From an uncultured archaeon (GTDB lineage: Archaea > Thermoproteota > Nitrososphaeria_A > Caldarchaeales > Calditenuaceae): DNA of 64,000 nt. The position numbers were made by a program, and so were the translations under genes. A model generated the notes under the pieces. That model was not told the DNA's origin. It ran no database searches and saw only the letters and a program-made list of their open reading frames with translations. The DNA lies in NCBI GenBank assembly GCA_938017985.1, contig CALIKS010000001.1, positions 277,348-341,347 on the forward strand, written 5' to 3'. Positions 7,412 to 62,399 of this stretch are shown here, piece by piece; the stretch's first letter is position 1; each line of letters opens with the position of its first letter.

Positions 7412-7915
7412 GTGGAAACGTGGATTGCTAATTTTGACGATGTATTAAACAAGTTTTATGGTAAGTCCACTATACATTTTGTGCCTTTTGGAAACCCTAT
7501 AAGAAGAGATGATGCGGTAGGAATATACATAGTTCATAAATTAATGAAAATTATAAAAAATAAAAGAATAGTTGGATTAAAAATTCACTTAGCAAGAAAT
7601 AACATCGATTCGATATTTAGTAAAATTCAACATAACGACTTAGTTATTATTTTTGATGCAATTAGAGCCGATATAGAACCCGGTTCGATAATTTTTACTA
7701 GTCTTAATTCTGCAAAATATGGACTTTTCGGAACACATAATATCCCTCTGAAAATTATGTTTGATTTTAAACTGCTACCAGAGAAATCATACATACTTGG
7801 CGTAGTTCCATATGATTTAGGTATTGGAAAAGGCTTGTCTCCGTACATTAAAAACATAGCTGACGAGATAGTTAAGATTCTATATAAGAAAATAGGTGAT
7901 AGAAATAATGAATAG
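7412..7915 (+). CDS. hycI: [NiFe]-hydrogenase maturation endopeptidase (HycI/HyaD family)
   Basis: GTG start. FGNPIRRDDAVGIYIV matches the GNxxxxDDxxG metal-binding motif of hydrogenase maturation proteases. Second acidic motif IIFDAI and a later His (GTHNIPL). First gene of the hydrogenase operon. Confidence 0.7.
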   Translation: METWIANFDDVLNKFYGKSTIHFVPFGNPIRRDDAVGIYIVHKLMKIIKNKRIVGLKIHLARNNIDSIFSKIQHNDLVIIFDAIRADIEPGSIIFTSLNSAKYGLFGTHNIPLKIMFDFKLLPEKSYILGVVPYDLGIGKGLSPYIKNIADEIVKILYKKIGDRNNE

Positions 7916-8252
7916 TGAATTTTTACTAATATTCGGCATTGTTTTAATCATATTATGTAATCTTTCTGTATATATAATGGTAGGAATAGTAAGCAAAAGA
8001 TCTGCTGGAAACTCGCCTAAATTCGATCCATTCATGGGGGGTGAAGAAAACATACCACCGAGAGGACATTATAGATCTGAGCTTTTTGTTTTTGCCGTTC
8101 TTTTCCTAGTTGCTGAAAGTTATGCATTAATTCTTGTTGGGTCATACCTATCTCTAAATGTGTATAATGTCTTGTTATACCTACTAGGTGGTGCAGCTGT
8201 AATACTGATCTCAATATGGTGGTTAGTCACTGCAGGAGGCGTCAGGATTTGA
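7908..8252 (+). CDS. NuoA-like small membrane subunit of the membrane-bound hydrogenase
   Basis: Three TM helices. KFDPFMGGEE...ELFVFAVLFLVAESYALIL parallels the NuoA K..P(Y/F)E(C/S)G ... F.vFDvE pattern. ATG 7908 is preferred over GTG 7896 because GGTGAT (SD-like) sits 7 nt upstream. Overlaps the hycI stop. Confidence 0.6.
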   Translation: MNSEFLLIFGIVLIILCNLSVYIMVGIVSKRSAGNSPKFDPFMGGEENIPPRGHYRSELFVFAVLFLVAESYALILVGSYLSLNVYNVLLYLLGGAAVILISIWWLVTAGGVRI

Positions 8253-8686
8253 AAACAAACATCAAGTCATGGGCTCAGAAAAATTCATTATGGCTATTCC
8301 ATGTAAATGCAGCTTCATGCAACGGTTGTGATATTGAATTTGTTGCTTCTCTTACACCGAGATACGATATTGAAAGACTAGGGGCTCAGCTTGTACCTAG
8401 TCCTCGACATGCCGACGTGCTTGTAGTCACCGGAACGGTTAATCCATTAATGCGTGAAAGATTGAAAAGAATTTATGAACAAATACCCGAGCCAAAATAT
8501 GTAGTTGCACTTGGTGCGTGTGCGGGTGGTGGAGGTGTAATGAAGGGATGCTATAATGTTAGTCATGGTGTTGATAAGGTCATACCTGTCGACCTTTTCA
8601 TACCCGGTTGTCCTCCAAGACCAGAAGCCATAATTTACGGATTAATGAAATTGCGAGATAAAATAAGTGGTGGTAGCCATGAGTGA
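8216..8686 (+). CDS. NuoB-like [4Fe-4S] small subunit of a group-4 [NiFe] hydrogenase
   Basis: SLWLFHVNAASCNGCDIEF, PRYDIERLG, SPRHADVLVVTGTV, GACAGGGG, IPGCPPRP. An alternative start at TTG 8249 is preceded by AGGAGG (8234-8239) and may be the real one. Confidence 0.85.
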   Translation: MVVSHCRRRQDLKTNIKSWAQKNSLWLFHVNAASCNGCDIEFVASLTPRYDIERLGAQLVPSPRHADVLVVTGTVNPLMRERLKRIYEQIPEPKYVVALGACAGGGGVMKGCYNVSHGVDKVIPVDLFIPGCPPRPEAIIYGLMKLRDKISGGSHE

Positions 8687-9128
8687 AGATAAGCTTAATG
8701 AATTGCACAATCTTAAAATTAATAAAGAAAAAAATAAGATAATGATTGAGACAAGTCCAGCCGATATCAGAGATGTTTCTAGATTTATTATAGAAAAGAT
8801 GGGTGTGAAACACTTAACTGCAATAACTGGAATTGATGAGGGTGAAAAAATATGTATAATTTATCATTTTTGGAGTGAAGGTAATTTTATTAATATCGTT
8901 ACTAGGCTTCTCAAGACAGAGCTAAAAATAGAGTCTATAACGGATATTGTTCCAGGAGCATTATTATACGAGGCGGAAGTACATGATATGCTTGGGGTCT
9001 TCTTTCATGGCAACCCATTAATGGGGACTCATCTCCTGCTTCCTGATACTTATCCGGAAGATATACCTCCGCCTCTCCGAAAAGAAATCACTCCAGAAGA
9101 GATAAGGAGGAGGATGTTGCTTGAGTGA
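8679..9128 (+). CDS. NuoC-like (30-kDa) subunit of the hydrogenase
   Basis: ITGIDEGE...YHFW...LYEAEVHDMLGVFFHGNP...LLLPD follows the NuoC/HycE-N/MbhK pattern. ATG 8679 overlaps the upstream stop; GTG 8667 is also possible. Confidence 0.8.
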   Translation: MSEDKLNELHNLKINKEKNKIMIETSPADIRDVSRFIIEKMGVKHLTAITGIDEGEKICIIYHFWSEGNFINIVTRLLKTELKIESITDIVPGALLYEAEVHDMLGVFFHGNPLMGTHLLLPDTYPEDIPPPLRKEITPEEIRRRMLLE

Positions 9129-10359
9129 TAAAGATCAAGCGGAAGAAAAATTAGCAAAAATATCTACAGGGCTAATCCAATACTCTCCAGAGGGATTGGT
9201 GCCTTTTGGCCCGGTACATCCAGCACTTAAGGAGCCGGAATACTTCAAGATAATCCTTGAAGGTGAAAAAATTGTTCAAGTAATCCCTCGAATAGGCTAT
9301 GCTCATAGAGGAATAGAAAGAGCGTTGCAGGACCGTAATTGGATACAGGCAATTTACCTCGTCGAGAGAATTTGTGGAATCTGTAGTTTTTCTCATAGTT
9401 TAGCGTTTGTCCAGACAGTCGAAAGTCTGACTGAACTTGAAATACCTAGGCGTGCAAGATACATCAGATTAATCATAGCAGAATTAGAGAGGATACACAG
9501 TCACTTATTGTGGTTAGGACTAGTTGGTTATTGGACCGGTTTTGATACACTATTCATGTGGATTTGGAGAGATAGAGAACGTGTTTTAGATTTAATAGAA
9601 TTAATAACTGGCAACAGAGTCCATAAGTCATACGCAACAATCACAGGCGTTCGCCGAGACCTACCAGAAAATATCGAGAGACATATCCAACCAGCCATGA
9701 AGTACCTCTCTGATCGAGTAAAATTTTATAAAGAAATTATAAACAGCGAAGCTACCATCTTGATACGGACCAAAGGCATAGGATGGGTCTCTCCGGATGT
9801 TGCTGTGAGGTTATGTCCCGTTGGGCCGCTATTAAGATGCATGGGATTTAAACGTGATGTAAGAACCGATGATCCTTATGCAGCGTATGATGAAATAGTC
9901 CCAGATGTGAAAACCTCAACTGACTCAGATGTTCATTCCCTACTTAATTTAAGATTAGATGAAATAGAAGACTCTATAAGAATGGTCTTAGAAGCCATTA
10001 CATCCATTCCGACAGGACAAGTAAAATCATCTATTCCAAGAGCAATTCCAAGGGGTGATGCTATGGGACATGTGGAGGCTCCTCGCGGGGAGTTATTTTA
10101 CTTTGTAAGGTCCGAGGGCGGAAATAAACCTGTTAGGGTAAAGATTAGGACACCAACCCTAGCTAATATTCTTACCGCGACTGAGATGCTTAAAGGACAC
10201 ACTCTAGCAGATGTACCAGTTGTATTAACAGGAATGGACCCCTGCTTTGGATGTATGGACAGATTGACCATCATAGATATAGGGGAAGGAAAAAGATGGC
10301 AAATTAATGGCGAAGAACTCAGGAGGTATGGTATAGAGTGGTATAATAAAAATAGGTGA
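9121..10359 (+). CDS. [NiFe]-hydrogenase large (catalytic) subunit, group 4, at the NuoD position
   Basis: N-terminal RICGICSFSH (RxCGxCxxxH) and C-terminal DPCFGCMDR (DPCxxCxxR) supply both Ni-Fe-binding cysteine pairs. A 31-aa extension follows the Arg. TTG start is preceded by AAGGAGGAGGA. Confidence 0.9.
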   Translation: MSDKDQAEEKLAKISTGLIQYSPEGLVPFGPVHPALKEPEYFKIILEGEKIVQVIPRIGYAHRGIERALQDRNWIQAIYLVERICGICSFSHSLAFVQTVESLTELEIPRRARYIRLIIAELERIHSHLLWLGLVGYWTGFDTLFMWIWRDRERVLDLIELITGNRVHKSYATITGVRRDLPENIERHIQPAMKYLSDRVKFYKEIINSEATILIRTKGIGWVSPDVAVRLCPVGPLLRCMGFKRDVRTDDPYAAYDEIVPDVKTSTDSDVHSLLNLRLDEIEDSIRMVLEAITSIPTGQVKSSIPRAIPRGDAMGHVEAPRGELFYFVRSEGGNKPVRVKIRTPTLANILTATEMLKGHTLADVPVVLTGMDPCFGCMDRLTIIDIGEGKRWQINGEELRRYGIEWYNKNR

Positions 10360-11333
10360 ATGATAAAGTGATCAACTGGATATTCCAATTACTCGTATTT
10401 CCTGGCCTTACATTTTTTGTTTGGATAGCCTTTGCGTTTGAGTGGCTTGAACGAAAGACGGCCGCTAAGATACAAAGCAGAGTAGGACCATTGACTGCAG
10501 GACCGAAGGGATTTTTACAACCAGTTGCAGACTACTTTAAACTCATTTTCAAGGAAGAGATAATACCGAGAAATTCAGACAAATTTGTATTTCTATTTGG
10601 TCCCCCCTTGTATTTCTCAGTTCCGGCCATCGGTGCTGCCTTCATTCCGATATTAGGAGAAAAAGGGGTCTTAAGTCACAGCTATGATTTACTCTTCATA
10701 CTATTCATAATGGCATTCTCAGTACTAATGGCATCTATGCTAGGCTATGCTGCCGGTGGAAGATATTCTACAATTTCAATAGGGAGGCTAGTCTTACAAT
10801 ATACTAGTTATGAAGTTCCGCTAATCTTGAGCATACTTGCCCCTGCTCTTTTAGCAAGAGGTCTCTCATTAAGCAAGATTGTATCCTCTCAGATAAGTCA
10901 TTGGCATGTTTTTTATGCGCCAATCAGCTTTGCGGTATTCTTGATCGTCTCTTTAGCTGAGCTAGAAAAGCCTCCATTTGATATTCCGAGTGCCAAAACT
11001 GAAATAGTCGCTGGATGGATGACGGAATTTTCTGGAAGACCATTAGCATACATTAAACTTACTAAAAATCTTAACTATGTATTCTTATCATCATTAGCAA
11101 CGACACTATTTTTAGGAGGCCCATTACTACCAATAGATGTCCAAGATGAATTCCTTAAGACTATTCTATTTTTATTGGTTTTCCTCATCAAGACTTTTAG
11201 TGTAGGATTCCTCATATTCATAATTAAGTCAGCGCTAGCTAGGATAAAAATAGAGCAAGCGACCTCACTGTTATGGGTGATAACTACGCCACTTAGTTTC
11301 TTGCAACTTTTACTCATAGTATTATTCAGGTGA
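10356..11333 (+). CDS. NuoH-like membrane subunit (HycD/MbhM/EchB type)
   Basis: ERKTAAKIQSRVGP..GP.G.LQP.AD..K, about 8 TM helices, and E(K)PPFDIPSAKTEIVAGW, which matches the NuoH P(F)D..EaE.ElvaG motif. Confidence 0.85.
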   Translation: MNDKVINWIFQLLVFPGLTFFVWIAFAFEWLERKTAAKIQSRVGPLTAGPKGFLQPVADYFKLIFKEEIIPRNSDKFVFLFGPPLYFSVPAIGAAFIPILGEKGVLSHSYDLLFILFIMAFSVLMASMLGYAAGGRYSTISIGRLVLQYTSYEVPLILSILAPALLARGLSLSKIVSSQISHWHVFYAPISFAVFLIVSLAELEKPPFDIPSAKTEIVAGWMTEFSGRPLAYIKLTKNLNYVFLSSLATTLFLGGPLLPIDVQDEFLKTILFLLVFLIKTFSVGFLIFIIKSALARIKIEQATSLLWVITTPLSFLQLLLIVLFR

Positions 11334-11731
11334 AAAATATGAGAAGAAAAATCGGGATAACTATTCCTGAAATGATTAAAACAGCATTCAGTACAAAGAT
11401 AACAAAAAGCTACCCATTCAAAGAACTTGATGTCTCAGAAAGATTTAGGGGCAAACTAGAAATTGATCCTGACAAATGTACGGGATGTGGCGTCTGCGCT
11501 ATTGTCTGTCCTGCGTCCGTAATAACAATGGTCGAGGTAGGAAAAAGAAAATTTAGGGACAAAGAGGTCACCATAAGGAGGCCAATATTCAATCTTTATA
11601 ATTGTATATCATGTGGACAATGTGTTGATGATTGCAGATTCAATGCGCTACGTCTAACTAAGGAATTTGAACTAGCCGTTTTTGATAAAAATTCATTGGT
11701 AATGAAAAAGGCGATAGAACATGTCGAGTGA
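11330..11731 (+). CDS. NuoI-like 2x[4Fe-4S] ferredoxin subunit
   Basis: CTGCGVCAIVCP and CISCGQCVDDC cluster motifs. Position after the NuoH homologue. Confidence 0.85.
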   Translation: MKNMRRKIGITIPEMIKTAFSTKITKSYPFKELDVSERFRGKLEIDPDKCTGCGVCAIVCPASVITMVEVGKRKFRDKEVTIRRPIFNLYNCISCGQCVDDCRFNALRLTKEFELAVFDKNSLVMKKAIEHVE

Positions 11732-12197
11732 AGTCGCTATTATATTATCTATAATCTTGATAACTACCTCAATAATATCTCTAGCGTCTAAAACTATATC
11801 ACTCTCTCTTATAATGCTCTTTTATTCTTGCATCGTGTTGAATATTATATTTATCACGTATGGTGCACCAATAATAGCACTGGTCCATCTGACGATCTTT
11901 GCCGGAGCGGTCTCAGTTATGCTGCTCGCCACAATAGTTATTACAGGAGAAGCTGATCTTAGAATAGATGGAAAAAAGAATTATATTATTTCAGCGATTC
12001 TCATCATAATTATTACGAGTCTTATAGGCATCTACATATCTAATAGAATTTCAATAATAGAAAATAGTGGTCCTAGGGGTGAATTATTAGAGTTTATTTG
12101 GAATTACAGACCATGGGACCTTTTGGTCATGATAATAATTCTGGCTGCATCGATGGTGACAGTTTTGAATTTATTATCGAGAAGGGGGGAGCAGTAA
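11721..12197 (+). CDS. NuoJ-like membrane subunit
   Basis: 158 aa, 5 TM helices. ALVHLTIFAGAVSVMLLATIVI resembles the NuoJ Q..VYaGAi.VLflFvvMl segment. Operon position matches. Confidence 0.6.
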   Translation: MSSEVAIILSIILITTSIISLASKTISLSLIMLFYSCIVLNIIFITYGAPIIALVHLTIFAGAVSVMLLATIVITGEADLRIDGKKNYIISAILIIIITSLIGIYISNRISIIENSGPRGELLEFIWNYRPWDLLVMIIILAASMVTVLNLLSRRGEQ

Positions 12198-12502
12198 TGC
12201 TTGAACAATCAATACTGTTTACATGCTCATTCGTTTTAATTATAATTGGATTATTTTCTATTATTTATTCAAGAAATTTAATAAAGACGATGATGTCTTT
12301 TCAGATACTTGTCTTTGGGGTTAATCTAGCACTGTTTACAAATAGTCTGGGTGGAGGACCTGATCTATTTGCTAATACGTTGGTTTTATTCTCTATATTA
12401 GTTGGCGCAGGTGTCGAGGCCGTCGGCTTAGCGCTGGTTATCCAGCTTTATCGAAGATACGGTTCACTTGATCCGCATATGCTAAGGAGGTTGAAGCAAT
12501 GA
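12197..12502 (+). CDS. NuoK-like membrane subunit
   Basis: 101 aa from ATG 12197 (TAATG overlap with the nuoJ-like stop), 3 TM helices. NLIKTMMSFQILVFGVNLALF and GVEAVGLALV resemble NuoK/MnhC. The ORF-track start at 12098 would overlap the upstream gene by 100 nt. Confidence 0.65.
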   Translation: MLEQSILFTCSFVLIIIGLFSIIYSRNLIKTMMSFQILVFGVNLALFTNSLGGGPDLFANTLVLFSILVGAGVEAVGLALVIQLYRRYGSLDPHMLRRLKQ

Positions 12503-14238
12503 ATATAGCAGCATGGCTCTTATGGCTCGTACCTCTAGTAGCCTCACCATTAGTAATAGTACTATCAAAAATAGGGAGGAGAGCAGTAGAGATTTTTTCA
12601 TGCTGTGTAACGTTTATTTCTTTCATACTTAGCCTAGTAAATTCTGCTTTATATTATCACCCATCAGTTGAGAAAATCACGTATTGGTTACCGTTGATGA
12701 ATTTATTCATTGACATTAAAATAGATGGAATCTCTACATTGTTGTCAGTTTTTATTTCTTTTTTGTCGTTTATCATTGTTTTGTATTCTGTAGGGTATAT
12801 GTCTCATGAGTCGTCATATACTCGCTACTACTCTCTTATACTACTTTTTATCGGCTCGATGTTGGGCCTCATAATGGCTGGCAACCTAGTACAACTATAC
12901 TTCTTTTGGGAGATGGTGGGCATATGTTCAGCACTATTAATAGCTTTTTATAACATGCGTGAAAGTGCAAGGAGGGCCGGCTTCAAGGCATTTTTAGTCA
13001 CAAGAATTGGAGATGGAGCATTTTTAATTGCAATCATACTTACATATGTAGTTGCAGGAAGCATTGAACTTGACGCGGCTATATCTACGCTTAGAGACAC
13101 TTCACATTTTGGAAACATCGCTTGGATAATTTCCTTGTTATTCATTATAGGGGCGATGGCTAAATCTGCTCAGGTCCCCCTCCATGTATGGCTTCCTGAC
13201 GCAATGGAAGGCCCGACGCCGGTAAGTGCTTTAATACATGCAGCCACAATGGTTAATGCAGGGGTTTACCTATTAGTTAGAATTTCACCAGTCCTGCTTG
13301 AACTACCTAATCTGCTATTTTTAGTTCAAATCATTGGACTTTCTAGTCTTTTACTCGCTGGTCTCTGCGCAATTACAAGCACGGATATAAAGAGAGTATT
13401 AGCATACTCAACAATTAGCCAGATCGGACTAATGTTCTATGCTATTGGATTAAAATTTTGGGAAGGCGCAATTTATCATTTGATAAGCCAAGGCATCTTC
13501 AAGGCTCTAGGATTCCTAGCCGCAGGCGCAATCCTCATGATGTTAGGTACTGGAAACATCGATGAGTTGGGTGGACTGAAAAAATACATGAAGTATACCT
13601 ATCTTAGCTTTAGTATCGCGGTACTAACTATGAGTGGATTCCCTCCCTTTATTGGTTTTTGGAGTAAAGATACTATTTTATCGAAAACTATTAATGAAGG
13701 ATGGATTTTAACAATAATGATTATTTTATCTTCATTACTAACTACAATCTACGGCTTCAGATTATTATTCAGAGTTTTTCACGGAAGCGCGAAGACGCAA
13801 AAAGTACCTAATGATGCACCTATAATTATGTTATTGCCAATGCTTATTCTAATTCTGTCAACAATCGCTTCGTGGCCACTCTTGTTAATTCAAAAATTCA
13901 TTAATTTTGAATTCACTCTTCATTTAGAACCAGTGACTATAGCTCTAAGTTTAGTAGTCTTGGCTATTGGAGTTGGCTTAACATTCACGATTAACTATAA
14001 GTACAAATATACATTTGACAATATAATAGCTAAATCAGACACCTTGCTAAAATTAAGAAGCATCCTTTTACAAGGGTTTGGATTTGATTCGATATATCAA
14101 AAAATAATTGATAATACAATTCCAATTATTTACAACTCTGTTAGACGTATTCAGACTGGAATTCTCAACGTTAACATGACATACATATTCGTCATCATTA
14201 TAGTAATAATTATTTTATTTATGGGTGGGATATTATGA
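12499..14238 (+). CDS. NuoL/MrpA-type antiporter-like subunit with a C-terminal lateral-helix-like segment
   Basis: FFWEMVGICS, AKSAQVPLHVWLPDAMEGPTPVSALIHAATMVNAGVYL. A C-terminal amphipathic stretch (LLKLRSILLQGFGFDSIYQKIIDNTIPIIYNSVRRIQ) is followed by a final TM helix, as in NuoL. Confidence 0.85.
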   Translation: MNIAAWLLWLVPLVASPLVIVLSKIGRRAVEIFSCCVTFISFILSLVNSALYYHPSVEKITYWLPLMNLFIDIKIDGISTLLSVFISFLSFIIVLYSVGYMSHESSYTRYYSLILLFIGSMLGLIMAGNLVQLYFFWEMVGICSALLIAFYNMRESARRAGFKAFLVTRIGDGAFLIAIILTYVVAGSIELDAAISTLRDTSHFGNIAWIISLLFIIGAMAKSAQVPLHVWLPDAMEGPTPVSALIHAATMVNAGVYLLVRISPVLLELPNLLFLVQIIGLSSLLLAGLCAITSTDIKRVLAYSTISQIGLMFYAIGLKFWEGAIYHLISQGIFKALGFLAAGAILMMLGTGNIDELGGLKKYMKYTYLSFSIAVLTMSGFPPFIGFWSKDTILSKTINEGWILTIMIILSSLLTTIYGFRLLFRVFHGSAKTQKVPNDAPIIMLLPMLILILSTIASWPLLLIQKFINFEFTLHLEPVTIALSLVVLAIGVGLTFTINYKYKYTFDNIIAKSDTLLKLRSILLQGFGFDSIYQKIIDNTIPIIYNSVRRIQTGILNVNMTYIFVIIIVIIILFMGGIL

Positions 14239-15683
14239 ATTCTTGGCTTCTAAATATAATGATGATATGTTTTACAGTCGCGATGGCTGTAATGATTAGC
14301 GATGCATTTCTTGTAAGAATAAAAAAATGGCGATTATCAGTTACTTTTATCCTCACTGCTGCTTCTTTATTGTCTTCACTTACGCTTTTAATGATTAATT
14401 GGTCCGATGTTCAAGGAAGATACTTATTTATCAGAGCTTCTGAGTCGTTGTTTTCGACACTCTACATTATTGATAGTCTTGGCTATATTGTTATTTTGTT
14501 GATTTTGATGATTAGCACCATTGTAGTATTGTATTCTAAGTATTATATTGACGCGAATGAAAACATAGGACCTTACTTCAGCCTTATCCTTCTACTGGCG
14601 GTATCATTGATTGGCGTCGTCGTGGCAGGAGATTTATTAGTCCTGTTCTTATTCTGGGAGGCAATGAGTATCTGCGCTTACGGATTAGCATCGTTTAATA
14701 GAGAAGATCAGCTATCCCTTGAGTCTACGATGAAGTATCTTATTCTTGCTGGTTCAGGCAGTTTAATAGCGCTATTAGGCATAGGATTAATCTATAATGA
14801 AGTCGGGAGCTTATTGATAAGCGACATCAATAGCATAAACTTTTCAACATCAAGTATCGGTATACTAGGAATATTGTTTCTATTAATCGGACTAGGTGTC
14901 GAAATAGCGATATTTCCTATGCAAACTTGGTTACCTGATGTTTATGCATCTACACACCCACCAATCGCGTCATTGTTTGTAGGCGCTACCAAGACGACTT
15001 CATTTTATGCAATTATAAAGATCCTACAGCAAGCTATCTCTCTGGACTCCTCACCAACTCAATTAAGTTTATTCCTAGCATCCTTAGCAATTTTGACTAT
15101 GTTTGTAGGCAATTTTAGTGCATTTTATCAACCTAATCTTCGTAGATTATTGGCATTTTCCTCGATAGTTCATGCCGGATACGCATTGGCATCCATATCT
15201 ACATTGAGTACTCTTGGATTCATTGTAGGCGTATTTCATCTATGGAATTACGGCATTGTTAAATCAATTCTCTTTCTATTGTCCGGCATAATAAGTAAAA
15301 AATATGAGGATGCCGACATAAATAGACTTGCTGGTATTGGAAACAAGGATAAGATGATAGGCTTCTTATTTGCCGCTTCAAGCCTAGCGATGGTCGGCTC
15401 ACCTCCATTCGGATTATTCTGGAGTGAATTATTAATCATAAAGTCTCTATTCGATGCAGGTGGTAGTTTTGGCTTTATGCTCGCTATCAGCGTTATAGTA
15501 AATATTATTATATCAATCGGTTACTATTACAGAATAATAAACACTATTAGCCTAGGTGTAAGAGTTGATAATGTCCCAATGCCAAGCTATGACAGAAAAA
15601 TGCTGATACCCATCTTTGTTTTAATCTCTTTAAGCCTCACTATTGGTATAGCACCATGGATACTGCTCAACTTGATCATATAA
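14235..15683 (+). CDS. NuoN/NuoM/MrpD-type antiporter-like subunit
   Basis: LFLFWEAMSICAYGL, PMQTWLPDVYASTHPPIASLF, RLLAFSSIVHAGY; about 14 TM helices. ATGA overlap with the upstream gene. Confidence 0.85.
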   Translation: MNSWLLNIMMICFTVAMAVMISDAFLVRIKKWRLSVTFILTAASLLSSLTLLMINWSDVQGRYLFIRASESLFSTLYIIDSLGYIVILLILMISTIVVLYSKYYIDANENIGPYFSLILLLAVSLIGVVVAGDLLVLFLFWEAMSICAYGLASFNREDQLSLESTMKYLILAGSGSLIALLGIGLIYNEVGSLLISDINSINFSTSSIGILGILFLLIGLGVEIAIFPMQTWLPDVYASTHPPIASLFVGATKTTSFYAIIKILQQAISLDSSPTQLSLFLASLAILTMFVGNFSAFYQPNLRRLLAFSSIVHAGYALASISTLSTLGFIVGVFHLWNYGIVKSILFLLSGIISKKYEDADINRLAGIGNKDKMIGFLFAASSLAMVGSPPFGLFWSELLIIKSLFDAGGSFGFMLAISVIVNIIISIGYYYRIINTISLGVRVDNVPMPSYDRKMLIPIFVLISLSLTIGIAPWILLNLII

Positions 15684-15748: not shown

Positions 15749-16054
15749 ATGAGGTGGGATAGAATAATAAAAGAAATCAGTTCGATTGATCAGGCAATAA
15801 TAATAGAAGAGAACGTCGTTAAAGGATATTACACATCGATTCTTGAAAGCATTAAAGAGTGGATAATGGTGGAAGAGGACATAATGAATAGCTATCAAAG
15901 GTTTAATAATCCAATTATCAATAACCTAATAGAAGATTCAAAAAATACAATTAATATTTTAAATAGGATTCTTAATGAAATTAGTGGTCTCATAGAAATA
16001 AGAAATCAAAGAGTACGGCTACTACAAGAATTAAAACAAACGACAAGCCAATAA
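15749..16054 (+). CDS. hypothetical protein (helical)
   Basis: 101-aa ORF in an otherwise empty AT-rich gap after the hydrogenase operon. No recognisable motif. Confidence 0.3.
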   Translation: MRWDRIIKEISSIDQAIIIEENVVKGYYTSILESIKEWIMVEEDIMNSYQRFNNPIINNLIEDSKNTINILNRILNEISGLIEIRNQRVRLLQELKQTTSQ

Positions 16055-16414: not shown

Positions 16415-17278
16415 ATGCTGTCAACAGACTCTCAGTCTGGATACATAACATTTTTATCACAGCTAGCTAAGAACTATAACGAGGCTTTTATGATGGGGGA
16501 AAGAAAAGCAACCCCACATCATGCTACGAGGAGAAGTACTATTCTACGGTTGTTTGGATGGCTGAGCTTATTTACTATGCTATCGCTTAGTTCTGTGAAA
16601 GGACAGATCGAGAAGTTCTATAAAGATTTTCCGCTTTACAGCAGAGGTGAAATGAAGAAGAGGTGGGCAATGGTAGTAGACTTGAGGAGATGCACTGGTT
16701 GTTACGCATGTCAAGTTACTTGCAAGGTGGAGTTTGGCGTTCCGTTTGAAGGCTTCAGAACATGGTTAGAGACATACGAGTATGGATTATATCCAGAAGT
16801 TAAAAGACTCTTCCTCCCACGAATGTGTAATCACTGTGATAATCCACCATGTGTACCGGTCTGCCCTGTACAAGCCATATACAAGAGAGATGACGGAATA
16901 GTTCAGATAGACCAGTTGAAATGCATCGGCTGCGGCTACTGTGCGGAAGCATGTCCATATGGAGCGATATATAAGAACAATGCCACAAACACGTACGATA
17001 AATGTACATTTTGCGAACACCGTTTAGCGCAAGGGCTTCTTCCAGCTTGCGTCTCTAACTGCTTTGGTAAGGCCATGTACTTCGGCGACTTAGCTGATCC
17101 TAATAGCATAGTTTCTAGACTCATCAGTGAAAACAAAGTGCAGCTCCTCAAGCCATATTTAGGGACGGAGCCGATGGTCTACTACATTGGACTCGACGAG
17201 ACGCTGATAACGGGTGTAAGCGCTAGGGTGAAGGTAATCTCACCTAGAACTGGGGTTAAGGAGGTGTCTGCTATATGA
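16415..17278 (+). CDS. 4x[4Fe-4S] ferredoxin subunit (TtrB/PsrB/NrfC/DmsB family) with its own Tat-type signal
   Basis: Twin-arginine ATRRSTILRLFGWLSLFTMLSLSS. Cluster motifs CTGCYACQVTC, CNHCDNPPCVPVCP, CIGCGYCAEACP, CTFC...C. The start could also be the MM at 16490. Confidence 0.85.
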   Translation: MLSTDSQSGYITFLSQLAKNYNEAFMMGERKATPHHATRRSTILRLFGWLSLFTMLSLSSVKGQIEKFYKDFPLYSRGEMKKRWAMVVDLRRCTGCYACQVTCKVEFGVPFEGFRTWLETYEYGLYPEVKRLFLPRMCNHCDNPPCVPVCPVQAIYKRDDGIVQIDQLKCIGCGYCAEACPYGAIYKNNATNTYDKCTFCEHRLAQGLLPACVSNCFGKAMYFGDLADPNSIVSRLISENKVQLLKPYLGTEPMVYYIGLDETLITGVSARVKVISPRTGVKEVSAI

Positions 17279-18399
17279 GTCTGCCAGCTACACTTAACTG
17301 GGACCTAATGGTGGCTCTGTACTTCTTCTTCTCTGGCATAAGTGTAGGAGCTATTATTCTCGCATGTTTACCGCTAGTATTCGGGTTCAAGAGATACCGA
17401 CCGATCGCAGGGCTTGCCCTCATCACGGGATTAGTGTTCGGCATAATGACAGCACTAGTCATTTTACCACACCTTACTCAACCAGCTCGTTGGTGGACTT
17501 TGGCTACCGTCATTCAAACAGCATCTCCAATGTCATGGGGCGTCTTCATACTCATAAGCTATCTATTGCTCATACTGGTAGGAGGCAGGCTCGCCTATGG
17601 TTCGGCCTTGATGAACATATATAATCAGAGTACAGGGATGGCGAAGACGTTCTATAAAATCCTATTACTCGGCAAAACGGACATAACACACGAAGCCGAG
17701 AAACGACAGGCAATGATAGCCAGAGTGATCTTCGGCGCAGCATTCCTTGTAAGCCTTTTATTTGTCTACCAAGGTTTCGAAATAGGCATCCTCGCGGGAA
17801 GACCTCTCTGGTACAGCACCATCACACCGTTCCTGTTCATACTCACATCAGTCGCATCAGGCTTCAGCCTAGTGATGATTGGATGGATTGTTCTGAATAA
17901 ATACTTTACAAAACAAAAGGAATTGCGCGTAGATATGTTATCTGAGCTGGCTGTTATTACACTGGCGATTCTAGTCATACTCGTCGGGCTAATCATAGGT
18001 GAATATATAACTGTGCTTAGCGCTGATGTCTATAAACGATTAGCCATCTCAGCTCTTTTCATCGAGCCCAACTTATACATCTTCGTGTTAATAGGGATTG
18101 TGCTAGGGGCGATAATCCCGGCGATACTTTTAACTATTCCACGAGGAAGGAACAACGTCGCGGTGCTACTTCTATCTTCAATACTAATCACAGTAGGAAT
18201 GTTTGCGGTAAAGCTGGGAATATTGATTGCTGGACAGATGTTTGCCAAGGTACCGTCCTTACCCCCTTCGCTGACTAAAGTATTAATGTCTCCTCTTGAA
18301 GCGCAGCTGGGAGTTGGGGCCTTGGCTTTAGCGATATTACTGTACCTATTATTTGTCTGGCTGCTTCCATGGAGACACGTTGTTGGAGGTGTTGAATGA
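17275..18399 (+). CDS. NrfD/PsrC/TtrC-type polytopic membrane anchor subunit
   Basis: 374 aa, about 9-10 TM helices. Sits between the FeS and catalytic subunits, with ATGA-type overlaps on both sides. Confidence 0.8.
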   Translation: MSLPATLNWDLMVALYFFFSGISVGAIILACLPLVFGFKRYRPIAGLALITGLVFGIMTALVILPHLTQPARWWTLATVIQTASPMSWGVFILISYLLLILVGGRLAYGSALMNIYNQSTGMAKTFYKILLLGKTDITHEAEKRQAMIARVIFGAAFLVSLLFVYQGFEIGILAGRPLWYSTITPFLFILTSVASGFSLVMIGWIVLNKYFTKQKELRVDMLSELAVITLAILVILVGLIIGEYITVLSADVYKRLAISALFIEPNLYIFVLIGIVLGAIIPAILLTIPRGRNNVAVLLLSSILITVGMFAVKLGILIAGQMFAKVPSLPPSLTKVLMSPLEAQLGVGALALAILLYLLFVWLLPWRHVVGGVE

Positions 18400-21263
18400 A
18401 AATGGTCAACAGGAGAACTGTTCTTAAGGGCTTAACGTTAGCAGGTCTGGGCGCGGTGTCCGTATACGGTTACATGCCGCTTATAGAGAAATTTGCTCTG
18501 CGGGAGTTACAAGAAGGGGAACAGAAAAGTCTCATGGCGAGACCAGCTAAAGAGGAATTCCAAGTGAAATATACTGCTGACGTGATGTGCCCCTCTGAGT
18601 GTGGATTAGAGGTATGGGTGAAAGATGGTGTAGCACATCGCATCTACGGAAACTACGCCTGTCCCTACAATGATGGCGCAATCTGTGGAAAGGGTGCAGC
18701 AGGTCTAGGGCTAGTGTATTCCCCCTACAGGATAAGAAAGCCGATGATAAGAGTTGGTGAGAGAGGCGAGGGCAGATTTAAGGAGGTTAGCTGGGAAGAG
18801 GCCATAGACTATATAGCACGAAAAATGATAGAAATCAAGAAGAAATATGGACCAGAATCTGTCATCGTAGACACTGGTGATGTAACTGACAGAGACCAGT
18901 ATTGGCGTCTCGGATTCGCATTTGGCACACCAAACTGCGTCGAACATGGCGCCATATGTGATACTCCAAGACGCCATGGCCCCAAGCTCATGTTTAACGG
19001 AAAGAGGATAGAGCCTGACATCATGACGCCTAGGCTAGTAAGGCAGCCAGATGGTAGTTTGGCGTGGGACAGAACGCATAGGGCCAAGCTGATTATCTAC
19101 GCTGGATGGAATCCTTTCCTCGCAACAAGGATAAACTGGGAGAGTAGGGGAACTGTAGCGGCTAAGGTTGAGAATGGTTGTAGGGTCATCGTCATAGACC
19201 CCGTGTTCAGCAACACGGCGACCCAAGCGGACATGTGGGTTCCTATAAGGCCGGGAACCTTAGCGGACCTCTTCGCGGCGATGCTGCGCTATATACTCGA
19301 AAACGATGATCCGAAAGACCCCACAAGACGTTACATAGATTGGGATTTCAAGAAGTATTCTATTGGGTGGGAAGACTTCGAGAAGGCGTTCCGAGAATGG
19401 TGGGATAAAACAGATCCCATTAATGGTCTGAAATACTTCACCCTCGAATGGGCTGAGAACCGTACCGACATCCCGAAAGAGAAGATAAAGGAATTAGCTC
19501 ACTTGTTTGGGATAACGAAGCCGGCCGCACTTGTCTGGGGTATGCAGGCTCCTGGACATCATTACAACGGCTATTGCGCCTCGATTCTAGGAACAGTCCT
19601 CAACGTTATTACAGGAAACTTCGACGCACCGGGAGGAGCGATAGATACTGAGATAGTCAAGTCTAGCAAAGGCGGAACAGCTACAGGTAAATGGATGCTG
19701 AGCAAGAAGGTCAAGAGAGTAGTTAATGGTCAGGAAGTAGAGGGAACAGTAGCAGAGCTCCACATGGATCATTATAGTGACTGGCCATCGGCTTGGGACG
19801 ATGTTGTCGGCGACTATCCTAGAAGGTTCCGAGAGGGCGTTACAATCAGATACGGATCATTCCGCGGACACAAGTATCCAATCAAGGCCTACATACTAAG
19901 AACAGGTAACTCTGTTATAACTGCCGGCGCTACATGGGACTGGATAGATGCCCTGACTGCAAAAGAAGGCGGCGAGTACAAGGTAGAGTTGGTGGTTGTC
20001 ATTGATACAATATTTTTGGAGACGGCCCTGTATGCCGATGTTCTCTTGCCCGAGGCAAGCTATCTAGAAAGGATGAGCCTCTCAGATATCTATCCAACAT
20101 ATCCTGTGATTTTCCTTAGGGACGCCGTCATAGAGCCATTGCACGAATCAAAGAAGCCAACTGATATAATGAACATGTTGGCAAAGAGACTGTATGAACT
20201 AGGAGACAGAGACATAAGGCCAGAAGACTTCTGGGAGAAGTACAAAAGCGAGGAAGACTTCGTCAACGAGATGCTTGAAGTAGCCCCGGGAAGGCCCAAC
20301 GTCGGTCAGCCTCTCCCCTACCCGCAGTACCCGGAGGGCTACACAATAATTGGTGACCCCGAGTCTCTTGAAAAGGGCGAGGTCACTATTGACCATGAGA
20401 AAAAGGTGATTAGGGGAAGACCTCTCACCGTGAAATGGTTAAGAGAGCATAAAGGCGTGGCCGTTTGGCCGATGAGCTGGTATCGATATCGGAAATGGGA
20501 TGAGGAGAAGAAAGAATGGGTACCTAACAAGGCTTGGCCTCCAACGGCGAGTAAAATGATAGAGTTCGTCTGGGACTACACTACAACAGATGGGAAGAGA
20601 CAAGGCATGTACTCCTCAGCCAATGCCAGGATCGAAAAGACAGGTGAAATACCGAGAGGACTCCGAGAGATAGGATTCGAGAAGTTCCCAAGGACCTTTT
20701 ACTGGTTCGAAGCAAAGTACAACCCATATACAAATCCGAAAGTCGCATACTTGAAGAATGAGTATCCCTTCATGCTAATAAGCGGTAGAGTGCACCATGC
20801 GATGAGTGGAACCCAAATGGTAGCGGCTCTCGGGCAAAGCCCGGCTGAAGGCACATGGACACCCCTTAATAAAGAAGTTGAAGTCGAGGTGGAGGACTTT
20901 ACGCCCACAGGTGTCATAACCCGTAAAAAGAAATTCCTCGAAGGAGAGTGGGCTGTTGGCACAGTTTGGATAAACAGCGCTGACGCGGCTAAACTAGGTA
21001 TTAAGATGGGAGACCTTGTAAAGGTGGAGAATCACTTGAAAAGGTCCGTCGTAGGCCGTGCATACGTAAGTGAAGCCATTAAACCAGGCGTCGTAAAGAT
21101 AGCTTTTGCAGCTGGCGGAAGATTCAGTCCAGGAATAGGCCCAACCTACGTTCACAAAGATTATACACCTGACTACAATATGCTCGTGATTCCAGACAAT
21201 CTCACACCAATAATGGGACAGCCCGCTTTTACAGCCATTCCTGTAAAGGTAGAAAAACTCTAA
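18396..21263 (+). CDS. molybdopterin (bis-MGD) oxidoreductase catalytic subunit, Psr/Phs/Ttr/Arr clade; substrate not assignable
   Basis: Tat signal MVNRRTVLKGLTLAGLGAV. FS0 region DVMCPSECGLEVWVKDG...AICGKG. Candidate Mo-ligand Cys in VEHGAICDTPRRHG. C-terminal barrel-like WINSADAAKLGIKMGDLVKVEN. Confidence 0.85.
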   Translation: MKMVNRRTVLKGLTLAGLGAVSVYGYMPLIEKFALRELQEGEQKSLMARPAKEEFQVKYTADVMCPSECGLEVWVKDGVAHRIYGNYACPYNDGAICGKGAAGLGLVYSPYRIRKPMIRVGERGEGRFKEVSWEEAIDYIARKMIEIKKKYGPESVIVDTGDVTDRDQYWRLGFAFGTPNCVEHGAICDTPRRHGPKLMFNGKRIEPDIMTPRLVRQPDGSLAWDRTHRAKLIIYAGWNPFLATRINWESRGTVAAKVENGCRVIVIDPVFSNTATQADMWVPIRPGTLADLFAAMLRYILENDDPKDPTRRYIDWDFKKYSIGWEDFEKAFREWWDKTDPINGLKYFTLEWAENRTDIPKEKIKELAHLFGITKPAALVWGMQAPGHHYNGYCASILGTVLNVITGNFDAPGGAIDTEIVKSSKGGTATGKWMLSKKVKRVVNGQEVEGTVAELHMDHYSDWPSAWDDVVGDYPRRFREGVTIRYGSFRGHKYPIKAYILRTGNSVITAGATWDWIDALTAKEGGEYKVELVVVIDTIFLETALYADVLLPEASYLERMSLSDIYPTYPVIFLRDAVIEPLHESKKPTDIMNMLAKRLYELGDRDIRPEDFWEKYKSEEDFVNEMLEVAPGRPNVGQPLPYPQYPEGYTIIGDPESLEKGEVTIDHEKKVIRGRPLTVKWLREHKGVAVWPMSWYRYRKWDEEKKEWVPNKAWPPTASKMIEFVWDYTTTDGKRQGMYSSANARIEKTGEIPRGLREIGFEKFPRTFYWFEAKYNPYTNPKVAYLKNEYPFMLISGRVHHAMSGTQMVAALGQSPAEGTWTPLNKEVEVEVEDFTPTGVITRKKKFLEGEWAVGTVWINSADAAKLGIKMGDLVKVENHLKRSVVGRAYVSEAIKPGVVKIAFAAGGRFSPGIGPTYVHKDYTPDYNMLVIPDNLTPIMGQPAFTAIPVKVEKL

Positions 21264-21284
21264 AATCACCCTATTTTTCTTTTT

Positions 21285-21926
21285 ATGACAAAATCCATGA
21301 ATGATATGCTTGAATGGTTTATGCTAAGAGTGTCAATATATGACTTCTTAAGATGTATATTTCTTTTCGGTCCAAAAACAGAAATTCTAGCATCACTTTA
21401 TAAGACGCAGAAAAATCCCTACACCCAAAAATTATCTGAATATGACATGGCTAAGATAAGTATTTTAGAAGAGGAACATACTCGCATATTCATAAACCCA
21501 GCGACCATGTCGGCCGTACCATACGCCTCACACTACCTTTCTTCAACGGGGCTCTTAATGGGAGATGTGACTTTTTCGCTCAGAAAACGCTACATAGAAC
21601 TGGGATACGTCCTAGATGACAGAACATTTTCAGAAGATCATGTAGGAGTTGAGCTCGAGTTGATTTATCTACTGGCGGCTAAGACAATAAACGCTCTTAA
21701 CGAAGGTGACAATAGTAAACTGAAAGAACTTGTTAAGAATCAACGCGACTTCATAAAGGACCATATGCTGAGGTGGATTCCTGCATTCTGTTCGGCTATC
21801 AAGAACAACACTAGTGAAGATAGTTTTTACTACAACCTAGCTACATTATTAGAGTCATTCTTAAAGGACGACGCGGCAAGGCTCGACCTATTTCTAACCA
21901 AGACTAGAACAATCACATCACTATAG
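21285..21926 (+). CDS. TorD/DmsD-family redox-enzyme maturation chaperone
   Basis: EEEHTRIFINP (E.tRLF.gP-like) and EDHVGVELELIYLL (DHi..EL.fm..L) motifs. Lies immediately downstream of the Tat-exported Mo enzyme. Confidence 0.7.
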   Translation: MTKSMNDMLEWFMLRVSIYDFLRCIFLFGPKTEILASLYKTQKNPYTQKLSEYDMAKISILEEEHTRIFINPATMSAVPYASHYLSSTGLLMGDVTFSLRKRYIELGYVLDDRTFSEDHVGVELELIYLLAAKTINALNEGDNSKLKELVKNQRDFIKDHMLRWIPAFCSAIKNNTSEDSFYYNLATLLESFLKDDAARLDLFLTKTRTITSL

Positions 21927-51105: not shown

Positions 51106-51209
51106 TGCGGGGGTAGCCAAGTCTGGCCAAAGGCGACGGGCTTAAGATCATTGAAATGGGGAGATACCCGTTCCCGTAGGGGTTCGTGGGTTCGAATCCC
51201 ACCCCCCGC
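51106..51209 (+). tRNA. tRNA-Leu (anticodon UAA) with a 19-nt intron at the canonical 37/38 position (about 51146..51164)
   Basis: Acceptor GCGGGGG/CCCCCGC with discriminator A, D arm GCC..GGC. Anticodon stem ACGGG...CCCGT is interrupted after CTTAAG by ATCATTGAAATGGGGAGAT. Long variable arm TCCCGTAGGGGTTC, T arm GTGGG-TTCGAAT-CCCAC. Confidence 0.85.
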
Positions 51210-51344
51210 ATTAAGTCGCGAGCTCTGAATTTTTGATCTGTTTAGTTGTGATGACTATTTAGAGATTGGAGTACGGATGATGTGTGGGAAGGCTCTTCGT
51301 CAAAATAAAAATTTTAAAATAACTGCTTAACTATAAAGCATTAA

Positions 51345-60390: not shown

Positions 60391-61611
60391 TTAACGGTCC
60401 CACTCCACTGGCCAGACATTCTGGCTCCAGTATATCGCAGGTATCTCTGCTAATTTTGCGCCTCTCGAGAGATATGGAATAACTATCAAGTTGCGGAACG
60501 AGGCCGTAAGCATGCGGACCCTGTAGGGACGGTCAGTCCCATCCGACCTAACGTAGTAGACGGATTCTCCATGCGCCGCCTCTGCCCTAGCGATGGCTTC
60601 GCCCGCTGGAACCCTGATGTTTACTGGGTGTTGCTTGTTCTTCACTGGGCCGTCTGGAAGCCCCTCGACTGCCTGAGTGATTATCCTGATGCTTTGACGC
60701 ATCTCTTCAAACGCTACTACTGCCCTGGCGTATGAGTCTCCCTCTGTCCTGACTGGCACGTCAAACTTAAACTCGCCGTAGGCGTCGTAGGGCTCGTCTA
60801 TCCTTACATCCCTCTTAATCCCAGTGGCTCTAAGAGTCACTCCAACGACTCCCAGCTTTGCAGCCTCCTCTGCAGTTAGTTTTCCAACATTCACCGTGCG
60901 GTCCATGAAGAGTGCATTGTTTAGCATCAGGTCCCAGTAATGGTCTAGCCTCGCGTCTAGAAACTCCATTACTCTCAGGACGTATTTTTGGAAGTCGTCG
61001 GTCAGCTCGTCGCTGCTCGGAGACCTGCCGGTCGCGTCTCGGTACCAAGCTCTGAACTGCTTGACTAGGCCGCTGGGCACTCTTTTCGGCACGTCGTTTC
61101 TGACTCCTCCCGGAACAAAGTATGAGTGAGTTATTCTCTGCCCGCCTATGAACTGGACTAGGTCGACGACGAATTCACGGTCTCCGAAGGCCCACATGAA
61201 GGGAGTCGTTAACCCGAGGAATACTCCGTAGAGTGCAAAATAATAGAAGTGGCTTCCAATCCTGTTGAGCTCAGCGACTATCGGCCTTATGTATCTAGCC
61301 CTTAAGGGAGGCTCGACTCCCATCAACTTCTCAACTGCGAGGCAATAGGGATAGAGCATGCCGGCTGCATCAAGTATCGCGGGACGCTCTAGATGTGGTA
61401 TATTCGTTATCCAGGTCTTGTACTCGCAGAGTTTTTCCTCGCCCCTGTGGACAAAGCCGGGGTCGGGCTCGGCTGAGAGTACGGTGTCTCCAATTACTCT
61501 TACTATTAACCTGAAGTGACCAGTGCCTGGATGCTGGGGCCCGTACGAGAAGACAAGCCCCTCACCCGTATCAAAAAAACTAGCTTCTTTGACTTCGTCT
61601 TGACGATACAT
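60391..61611 (-). CDS. nuoD: NADH-quinone oxidoreductase subunit D (complex-I type, no Ni-Fe cysteines)
   Basis: YGPQHPGTGHFRL, HRGEEKL, ERPAILDAAG...CLAVEKL (no RxCGxC), GGQRITHSYFVPGGV. The C-terminus ...NVWPVEWDR lacks DPCxxC. Confidence 0.85.
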   Translation of the reverse strand: MYRQDEVKEASFFDTGEGLVFSYGPQHPGTGHFRLIVRVIGDTVLSAEPDPGFVHRGEEKLCEYKTWITNIPHLERPAILDAAGMLYPYCLAVEKLMGVEPPLRARYIRPIVAELNRIGSHFYYFALYGVFLGLTTPFMWAFGDREFVVDLVQFIGGQRITHSYFVPGGVRNDVPKRVPSGLVKQFRAWYRDATGRSPSSDELTDDFQKYVLRVMEFLDARLDHYWDLMLNNALFMDRTVNVGKLTAEEAAKLGVVGVTLRATGIKRDVRIDEPYDAYGEFKFDVPVRTEGDSYARAVVAFEEMRQSIRIITQAVEGLPDGPVKNKQHPVNIRVPAGEAIARAEAAHGESVYYVRSDGTDRPYRVRMLTASFRNLIVIPYLSRGAKLAEIPAIYWSQNVWPVEWDR

Positions 61612-61659
61612 CTCGCCGATTAGAACTATTGCTAATCCTTACTATTATAGTGTTTTTTA

Positions 61660-61854
61660 TCACGTCGCCATTCTACGCATCCTCATCACCACGAGCCCAA
61701 GCAAAAGTAGGATAATGATAACTATGAGTCCGAGGCGGAGGATTATTCCTAGGAATGCCCTGAGCCCAGTCAGTACGCCCCAAGTAAAGATGCTGAATGC
61801 ACTTATGAAGGTTACAAGAATTATCAGGAGTATTAGTAATGCTTTAGGACTCAT
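61660..61854 (-). CDS. small hydrophobic protein (2 TM) inserted between nuoC and nuoD
   Basis: 64 aa (MSPKALLILLIILVTFISAFSIFTWGVLTGLRAFLGIILRLGLIVIIILLLLGLVVMRMRRMAT). It fills the nuoC-nuoD gap on the same strand. Coding status is unproven. Confidence 0.35.
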   Translation of the reverse strand: MSPKALLILLIILVTFISAFSIFTWGVLTGLRAFLGIILRLGLIVIIILLLLGLVVMRMRRMAT

Positions 61855-61864
61855 CTCGAAGCTC

Positions 61865-62347: not shown

Positions 62348-62399
62348 CTTAAATTACTCACTGTTTAGCTTAGATATATGGATATTCCCCTGCGTCTCG

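Follow-up and report, generated by a model that had tools for sequence, protein, structure and literature searches.

An archaeal gene cluster in nuo order likely encodes a group 4 [NiFe] hydrogenase with a complex-I-like membrane arm

A cluster of eleven open reading frames (ORFs), ordered like the genes of respiratory complex I and carrying the ligand motifs of a [NiFe] hydrogenase, raises the question of which machine it encodes. The cluster occupies positions 7412-15683 on the plus strand of a 64,000-nucleotide stretch of DNA, hereafter the window (positions 277,348 to 341,347 of contig CALIKS010000001.1, assembly GCA_938017985.1), from an uncultured archaeon of the Calditenuaceae. We conclude that a single energy-converting, membrane-bound [NiFe] hydrogenase of group 4 is the likely product of the cluster, with a membrane arm resembling that of 11-subunit complex I minus NuoM.

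The genes follow one another in the order HycI, NuoA-like, NuoB, NuoC, NuoD, NuoH, NuoI, NuoJ, NuoK, NuoL and NuoN-like, and Pfam and NCBIfam searches gave strong family assignments for nine of the eleven. Adjacent ORFs overlap by 1-37 nt, or by 1-11 nt when internal starts with better support are used, namely a TTG at 8249 after AGGAGG for the NuoB homologue and an ATG at 12197 after GGGGG for the NuoK homologue, both behind Shine-Dalgarno-like sequences. Overlaps of 1-11 nt are typical of a translationally coupled operon. The same order, HycI-A-B-C-D-H-I-J-K-L-N, recurs in about 35 species-level metagenome-assembled genomes (MAGs), counted in data with one genome per species, and these genomes belong to two archaeal phyla. 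The recurrence and the stop/start overlaps support a single unit of transcription and assembly. Six membrane subunits are encoded, and two of these, at the L and N positions, are antiporter-like. The original prediction had described eleven overlapping or abutting same-strand genes that begin with HycI and continue in exactly the order of a complete nuo operon. The genes and the order from A to N were found as described, but the order is not complete, because NuoM is absent.

The protein at the NuoD position (9121-10359) was identified as a [NiFe] hydrogenase large subunit. It matches PF00346 (E = 3e-64) and PF00374 (E = 5e-17), and its scores against solved chains were 286 bits for MbhL, 265 for HycE, 218 for Nqo4 of Thermus and 184 for MbsL. 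The motifs RICGICSFSH and DPCFGCMDR align with the L1 and L2 Ni-Fe ligand cysteines of MbhL and HycE, and these four cysteines are invariant in 33-34 of 34 orthologues. The invariant residues are C85, C88, C375 and C378, together with the proton-relay glutamate E38 and R381. The 31 residues that follow DPCFGCMDR align with the extension of HycE that is cleaved by HycI, and a C-terminal tail of 30-44 amino acids (aa) is present in all large-subunit orthologues. The first gene of the operon (7412-7915) encodes a HycI-type maturation endopeptidase (PF01750/TIGR00072, E = 1e-18; 67 bits, above the cut-off), in which the metal ligands matching D16, D62 and H90 of E. coli HycI are invariant in 33 orthologues. 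Once the metal centre is in place, this protease would remove the tail of about 31 residues that follows Arg381. Maturation genes were also observed beside related operons, with hypC/D/E/F flanking three Thermoplasmata loci and hypA flanking two Nitrososphaerota loci (five loci in all: L008, L030, L031, L022 and L029).

The other peripheral subunits are also of hydrogenase or shared type. The small subunit, a NuoB/MbhJ homologue (8216-8686, probable start at 8249), matches PF01058 (E = 3e-34) and is 145-156 aa long. Among solved chains, MbhJ scores highest at 169 bits, compared with 137 bits for the complex I subunit PSST. Its CNGC aligns with that of MbhJ, and 31 orthologues share C35/C38, C102 and C132 without exception. 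The full motif is CNGCDIE, whereas the canonical NuoB encoded elsewhere in the window has ACCSVE. A fifth cysteine of the small subunit, C112, is likewise invariant in 31 of 31 orthologues and is missing from HycG and NuoB. A NuoC/MbhK-like subunit (8667-9128; PF00329, E = 4e-22) lies between the small and large subunits. The NuoI/MbhN/HycF-type subunit with two [4Fe-4S] clusters (11330-11731) matches Fer4_7 at E = 3e-17 and the NuoI and HycF families at about 1e-25, and all eight of its cysteines are invariant in 37 orthologues. It is the probable docking site of ferredoxin. No NuoEFG, FdhF or CooS/CooF-type input gene is attached to the cluster in the window or to the 35 related loci. The three claims of the original prediction on this part of the cluster, a genuine hydrogenase large subunit, a hydrogenase-type CNGC in the NuoB homologue and no attached electron-input gene, were all borne out.

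We considered whether the cluster might encode no hydrogenase at all, but a complex-I- or Ehr-like ferredoxin:quinone oxidoreductase, comparable to NDH-1 or Fpo-like enzymes, with a NuoD homologue that has kept ancestral motifs. The large subunit indeed finds its best NCBIfam match in the NuoD model, the NuoH and NuoL homologues are closest to NDH-1 and complex I, and the gene order is that of nuo. However, its 328 bits lie below the NuoD cut-off of 360, whereas the NuoD of a canonical minus-strand NuoB-NuoC-NuoD set in the same window (60391-63053) passes the cut-off at 390 bits. This paralogue (60391-61611, minus strand) is 33% identical to the hydrogenase large subunit and has A, D, W and E at the positions of the four cysteines. 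Across two phyla, the hydrogenase family conserves the four cysteines, the glutamate, the cleavable tail and a dedicated HycI; its small subunit carries CxxC and not the tandem CC that belongs to cluster N2, and hyp genes flank the operon in relatives. A quinone-reducing enzyme is therefore a very unlikely reading of the cluster.

The membrane arm was the second part of the question, and its largest subunits resemble complex I. The NuoH/NdhA-type subunit (10356-11333; PF00146, E = 9e-83) scored 161 bits against NdhA and 134 against NuoH, compared with 73 for MbsM, 70 for MbhM and 48 for HycD. The NuoL-type antiporter-like subunit (12499-14238) matches TIGR01974 at 456 bits, above the cut-off, and is closer to NdhF (292 bits) and NuoL (289) than to MrpA (209) and MbhH (164). 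Its conserved residues are E138, D172, K222, H247, D296, K335, K390, D391 and D530, and it retains all landmarks of E. coli NuoL that were tested (E144, D178, K229, H254, D303, K342, K399, D400 and the residue D542 of the lateral helix HL), in an alignment that reaches residue 549 of the E. coli protein. At the C-terminus, a transmembrane (TM) helix is followed by a non-membrane, partly amphipathic stretch of about 55 residues and then by a terminal TM helix. An AlphaFold2 (AF2) model built from 44 homologues (predicted local distance difference test, pLDDT, 86; predicted template modelling score, pTM, 0.88) places helices at 503-551 and the terminal TM at 556-575. In Foldseek, this model gave full-length matches to NuoL, ND5 and NdhF with template modelling scores over the query (TMq) of 0.81-0.87.

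The second antiporter-like subunit (14235-15683; PF00361, E = 5e-49) stands at the NuoN position and is of the MbhH/MbsH type, with 157 bits against MbsH and 130 against MbhH versus about 115 against NuoN/NdhB. Throughout the family, the lysine of TM7 is replaced by glutamate (E223) and the TM12 position is a glutamate (E398), while the glutamate of TM5 and the lysine of TM8 are retained. The TM7 glutamate is shared with the equivalent subunits of three other hydrogenase loci (L047, L044 and L048). The NuoK/MrpC/MbhG-like subunit (ORF opening at 12098, probable extent 12197-12502; PF00420, E = 6e-18) scored about alike with the NuoK and MrpC models (49 versus 46 bits), so that family models do not distinguish it from MrpC/MbhG. 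Its TM2 glutamate is a glutamine in 35 of 35 orthologues, and its TM3 glutamate lies one residue away from the aligned position.

The two remaining small subunits were assigned through orthologue profiles. The NuoJ-like subunit (11721-12197) reached 28 bits with PF00499, under the Pfam cut-off, and its profile A2 matched NuoJ chains only in the PDB (E = 1e-3 to 6e-3). Its G62 and V66 align with G61 and V65 of E. coli NuoJ, and Tyr59 is replaced by phenylalanine. For the NuoA-like ORF (7896-8252, likely start ATG at 7908), direct Pfam and NCBIfam searches gave no match. The sole PDB match of profile A1, built from 22 orthologues, was ND3 (8b9z_A; E = 0.039), in register, and PF00507 was matched by 6 of the 22. 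The ORF appears to encode a divergent NuoA/ND3-like subunit with three TM helices, a conserved K-x-x-PF-x-GGE loop and a conserved TM2 glutamate that aligns with E81 of E. coli NuoA. The sequence support for the NuoA and NuoJ assignments is weak but specific. Two claims of the original prediction on the arm were thus upheld, namely that the NuoL homologue has an amphipathic C-terminal segment and a terminal TM helix, on which sequence, residues and predicted fold agree, and that the small membrane ORFs match NuoA, NuoJ and NuoK. A third, that the last gene encodes a NuoN/M homologue, was right about a second antiporter-like subunit at the NuoN position, but the protein is nearer to MbsH and MbhH than to NuoN. 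Overall, the arm appears to be a mosaic, in which complex-I-type H and L subunits are combined with an Mbh-type second pump, without NuoM.

The Mrp-like side of this mosaic bears on the possibility that two machines are encoded side by side, an Ech-like hydrogenase (A/B/C/D/H/I) and an Mrp-like cation/proton antiporter (J/K/L/N). MrpA, MrpD and MrpC are homologous to L, N and K, Mrp functions alone, and the NuoK homologue scores about equally as MrpC. One related locus (L045) even has a J-K-L-N block upstream of an A-B-C-D-H-I block, which indicates that the two blocks can move as units. On the other hand, the Mrp-specific families PF01899, PF04066, PF03334, PF13244, PF20501 and PF04039 had no match in any gene of the cluster, which thus has no MnhB/E/F/G homologue and none of the MrpB/E/F/G-type genes required by a free-standing Mrp, in contrast to the classic Mrp-Mbh locus L048, where all six are present. 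The two blocks are translationally coupled and never apart in 35 genomes, NuoJ and NuoK bridge NuoH to the antiporter-like subunits in both complex I and membrane-bound hydrogenase (MBH), and the L subunit is NuoL-type, not MrpA-type. We regard two separate machines as barely credible. The cluster has the L1 and L2 motifs, the short CxxC small subunit and the NuoH-like, antiporter-like and two-[4Fe-4S] genes of group 4 hydrogenases, and in sequence a cleavable tail is predicted, with HycI in the same operon. It shares with complex I the NuoL lateral helix with TM16 and the connecting subunits NuoA, NuoJ and NuoK (NuoA and NuoJ weakly), and it lacks a Cys-less NuoD, a CCxxE NuoB and three antiporter-like subunits. 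These analyses establish the identities of the subunits, their ligand and channel residues, the conserved structure of the operon and the predicted fold of NuoL.

To place the cluster among its relatives, we compared it with homologous loci. The operon is carried by Nitrososphaerota that do not oxidise ammonia, from soil, peat, coal-fire and hot-spring samples, and by Thermoplasmata including Sysuiplasmataceae. Database relatives of the large subunit at 60-95% identity number in the thousands and are automatically annotated as NuoD or as hydrogenase-3 large subunit; the nearest other clusters, among 50%-identity representatives, are at most 50% identical. In a neighbour-joining tree, the family formed its own clade among Cys-retaining group 4 sequences, apart from the MbhL, HycE/HyfG and NuoD clades; this tree is rough, its representatives are unnamed, and its branch order among the group 4 clades is not to be trusted. 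Four of the related loci (L044, L045, L047 and L042) encode Cys-retaining large subunits at 45-50% identity together with NuoJ/K and L- and N-type subunits, but their orders differ: A-B-CD(NiFe)-H-I-J-K-L-M-N in L044, B-CD-I-H-J-K-L-N in L047, J-K-L-N-A-B-C-D-H-I-HycI in L045 and N-J-K-A-B-C-D-H-I-HycI in L042. Some of them have a fused C-D subunit, unlike the window. With three antiporter-like subunits to the window's two, L044 comes closer than the cluster studied here to a full complex I with a hydrogenase head.

Several details of the related loci were noted in addition. On the metagenomic contig of L044 (7534-17010), the fused C-D subunit keeps RICGIC and DPCFAC. In L047 (9580-21629), from a complete 1.83-Mb genome (CP094288.1), the NiFe cluster sits immediately upstream of a canonical nuoA-B-C-D-H-I-J operon. 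Two adjoining fragments make up the large-subunit match in both L034 (10001-11228) and L036 (10001-11207), a possible sign of a frameshift or pseudogene. L034 shares its contig with L016 and represents a second copy in another context.

A further gene accompanies the operon. A 101-aa protein is encoded immediately 3' of it in the window (15749-16054, plus strand), and the gene follows the operon in 29 related loci. The family comprises about 233 proteins annotated as hypothetical and is confined to the same lineages. The AF2 model (pLDDT 93) consists of two long helices forming a hairpin, and the residues E20, G26, Y27, W38, E42, D44, Y49, S64 and R88 are invariant. Searches with the protein found no Pfam domain and no significant profile or structural match; ferritin-like and hemerythrin-like hints were weak and well below significance. 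An assembly factor like HycH was considered and rejected, since the protein has no similarity to E. coli HycH. Its conserved position suggests that it may have a role linked to the hydrogenase.

The likely function of the complex, as read from its sequences, is that of a reversible ferredoxin:H+ oxidoreductase coupled to the translocation of H+ or Na+. Reduced ferredoxin, the presumed partner, would dock at the NuoI-like subunit, and electrons would travel from its two [4Fe-4S] clusters via the one [4Fe-4S] cluster that the small subunit holds to the Ni-Fe site of the large subunit, where protons would be reduced to H2. The module of NuoH, NuoA, NuoJ and NuoK would couple this redox step to the two antiporter-like subunits, and the MbhH-type subunit at the N position and the distal true NuoL would translocate H+ (or Na+), clamped by the lateral helix and terminal TM of NuoL. 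Run in reverse, the enzyme would draw on the ion gradient to reduce ferredoxin with H2.

Group 4 enzymes are reversible, as in Ech, Eha and Ehb. The same complex might therefore run mainly backwards, as a gradient-driven, H2-uptake H2:ferredoxin oxidoreductase like Eha, Ehb and Ech of methanogens, feeding low-potential ferredoxin to anabolism or to 2-oxoacid synthases. Besides this reversibility, no fermentative ferredoxin-producing enzyme is encoded nearby, and the hosts come, by their record titles, from H2-containing habitats, namely soils, peat and hot springs. But sequence fixes no direction, the closest solved relatives (MBH and formate hydrogenlyase, FHL) evolve H2, and the window showed no genes for CO2 fixation or methanogenesis, pathways that would call for an anaplerotic supply of this kind. 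Uptake as the physiological direction thus appears unlikely, and H2 evolution from ferredoxin is the direction that we would presume.

Several observations weigh against an ion-pumping, H2-evolving hydrogenase of this design. The NuoL model is a monomer and cannot show a lateral helix spanning a neighbouring subunit, and the profile matches behind the NuoA and NuoJ calls are weak (E = 0.04 and 1e-3). The E-channel departs from the usual pattern, given the glutamine in NuoK and the phenylalanine in NuoJ. In view of these deviations and the lysine-to-glutamate replacement in TM7 of the N-position subunit, any pumping stoichiometry, mode of coupling or even ion specificity can be put forward only tentatively. 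Searches of the 64-kb window turned up neither hyp genes nor a ferredoxin or 2-oxoacid:ferredoxin oxidoreductase. The family is known from genes and predicted models, and its hosts are related to lineages thought to be aerobic heterotrophs, in which an O2-sensitive, H2-evolving enzyme needs explaining. We nevertheless favour a single group 4 hydrogenase, whose subunits would assemble into one complex.

Other genes in the window were examined as possible partners or parts. A Ttr/Psr/Phs-like molybdopterin oxidoreductase cluster lies downstream (16415-21926, plus strand) in B-C-A order with a TorD-type chaperone, and comprises a TtrB-like protein (258 bits), NrfD and a PhsA-like protein (241 bits). 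It was rejected as an electron partner, as an opposite-strand tRNA-Ser lies between and the cluster is absent from all related loci. The canonical NuoB of the minus-strand set has the tandem cysteines and an N-terminal extension of about 70 aa. No nuoH-N genes come next to this nuoBCD set, because a ribosomal S15 gene adjoins it; the remaining complex I genes would thus lie elsewhere, or the arrangement is unusual. An ORF at 63514-63933 (minus strand) was tested as the NuoA of this set and is not NuoA. At 51107-51210 (plus strand), Rfam detected a 104-nt tRNA (51.5 bits) that was not reported by ARAGORN, presumably an intron-containing archaeal tRNA. Together with this tRNA, the closest relatives of the window, which are Nitrososphaerota MAGs, mark it as archaeal.

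The original prediction had presented the enzyme as a possibly new structural intermediate between group 4 hydrogenases and complex I. The mix of hydrogenase and complex I features is supported, but the architecture has already been published for Asgard archaea, and the family is abundant in public MAGs. Complex-I-like group 4 [NiFe] hydrogenases of Freyarchaeia and Atabeyarchaeia were published in 2024 (PMC11291895). For Heimdallarchaeia, Appler et al. (10.1101/2024.07.04.601786, section 7) describe groups 4j, 4m, 4p and 4q with NuoBCDI arms, ferredoxin input and no NuoEFG, and with an active Ni-Fe NuoD on a shortened complex-I-like membrane arm. The same functional reading as ours was reached for these architecturally similar complexes (PMC11291895; 10.1101/2024.07.04.601786, the latter in section 7). 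Published work uses HydDB group 4g as a catch-all that is heterogeneous and uncharacterised, and the group has been called polyphyletic (PMC11291895).

In the literature, we found no description of the hydrogenase family in Nitrososphaerota or Thermoplasmata, including under the names Thaumarchaeota, Gagatemarchaeaceae and Sysuiplasmatales, and no purified or solved group 4 hydrogenase with a complex-I-like arm. The novelty is therefore limited to a widespread non-Asgard member of a recently recognised, experimentally untouched class. Its particular features are the nuo order with HycI first, the mosaic arm and the dedicated 101-aa companion. The architecture thus extends beyond Asgard archaea: relatives of ammonia-oxidising archaea from soil, peat and hot springs commonly carry it, as do acidophilic Thermoplasmata, and this distribution implies H2 metabolism in lineages for which we found no describing paper. 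Hydrogenases with such arms bear on the evolution of complex I from hydrogenases and on how many ions the low-energy ferredoxin-to-H2 reaction can pump, and a compact operon of 10-12 genes with two antiporter-like subunits is a target for expression and cryo-electron microscopy. It is conceivable, though we hold it only tentatively, that the family is an independently assembled mosaic, in which Mbh-like B and D subunits and an MbhH-type subunit were joined to a complex-I/NDH-1-type NuoH and a true NuoL bearing its lateral helix, in nuo order. If a phylogeny separates the family from the Asgard enzymes, complex-I-like arms would have been built on hydrogenases more than once; alternatively, the clade would be a surviving intermediate toward archaeal complex I, with its own 101-aa accessory protein.

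The enzyme was also compared with known systems. Its closest solved catalytic module is that of Pyrococcus furiosus MBH (group 4d, 6CFW), as seen in the MbhL and MbhJ scores (286 and 169 bits), with which it shares the ferredoxin-to-H2 path via three [4Fe-4S] clusters and an MbhH-like subunit at the N position (130 bits). However, MBH has one antiporter-like subunit, no NuoL, no lateral helix and an Mrp-type MbhA-G set, whereas the window enzyme has no MnhB/E/F/G families, a NuoH nearer to complex I (161 versus 70 bits) and a true NuoL. It also resembles E. coli formate hydrogenlyase (Hyc, 7Z0S) and Hyf in its HycE similarity (265 bits), a homologous C-terminal extension and HycI. It differs from them in lacking an FdhF/HycB module, a fused C-D subunit and HycH, and its membrane subunits are far closer to Nuo than to HycC and HycD (HycD, 48 bits). 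Neither an FdhF/HycB nor a CooS/CooF module is linked to it, unlike in groups 4a-c. Six membrane subunits set it apart from Ech (group 4e), a six-subunit enzyme with two, and the retained Ni-Fe ligand cysteines set it apart from the Ehr complexes, in which they are lost.

With the 11-subunit core of complex I and NDH-1, the cluster shares the order A-B-C-D-H-I-J-K-L-N, a NuoH and a NuoL whose closest counterparts are the subunits of these enzymes, and a NuoL with all channel residues, HL and TM16. As in NDH-1, NuoEFG are missing, and ferredoxin would enter at NuoI. It departs from complex I in having a Ni-Fe site in place of the quinone site, CxxC in place of the tandem cysteines, a HycI protease, and two instead of three antiporter-like subunits, without NuoM and with an Mbh-type subunit at the N position. 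The Asgard enzymes likewise lack NuoEFG, have a NuoBCDI-type peripheral arm whose NuoD keeps its cysteines, and are proposed to take electrons from ferredoxin; they also have an L-like subunit with an HL helix and two antiporter-like subunits in an arm shorter than that of complex I. The window enzyme differs from them in its hosts (Nitrososphaerota and Thermoplasmata), in the lack of a linked Hdr or ATP synthase block, in HycI as the first gene and in the conserved 101-aa companion. On the published architecture, we regard it as an enzyme of the same kind as the Asgard hydrogenases.

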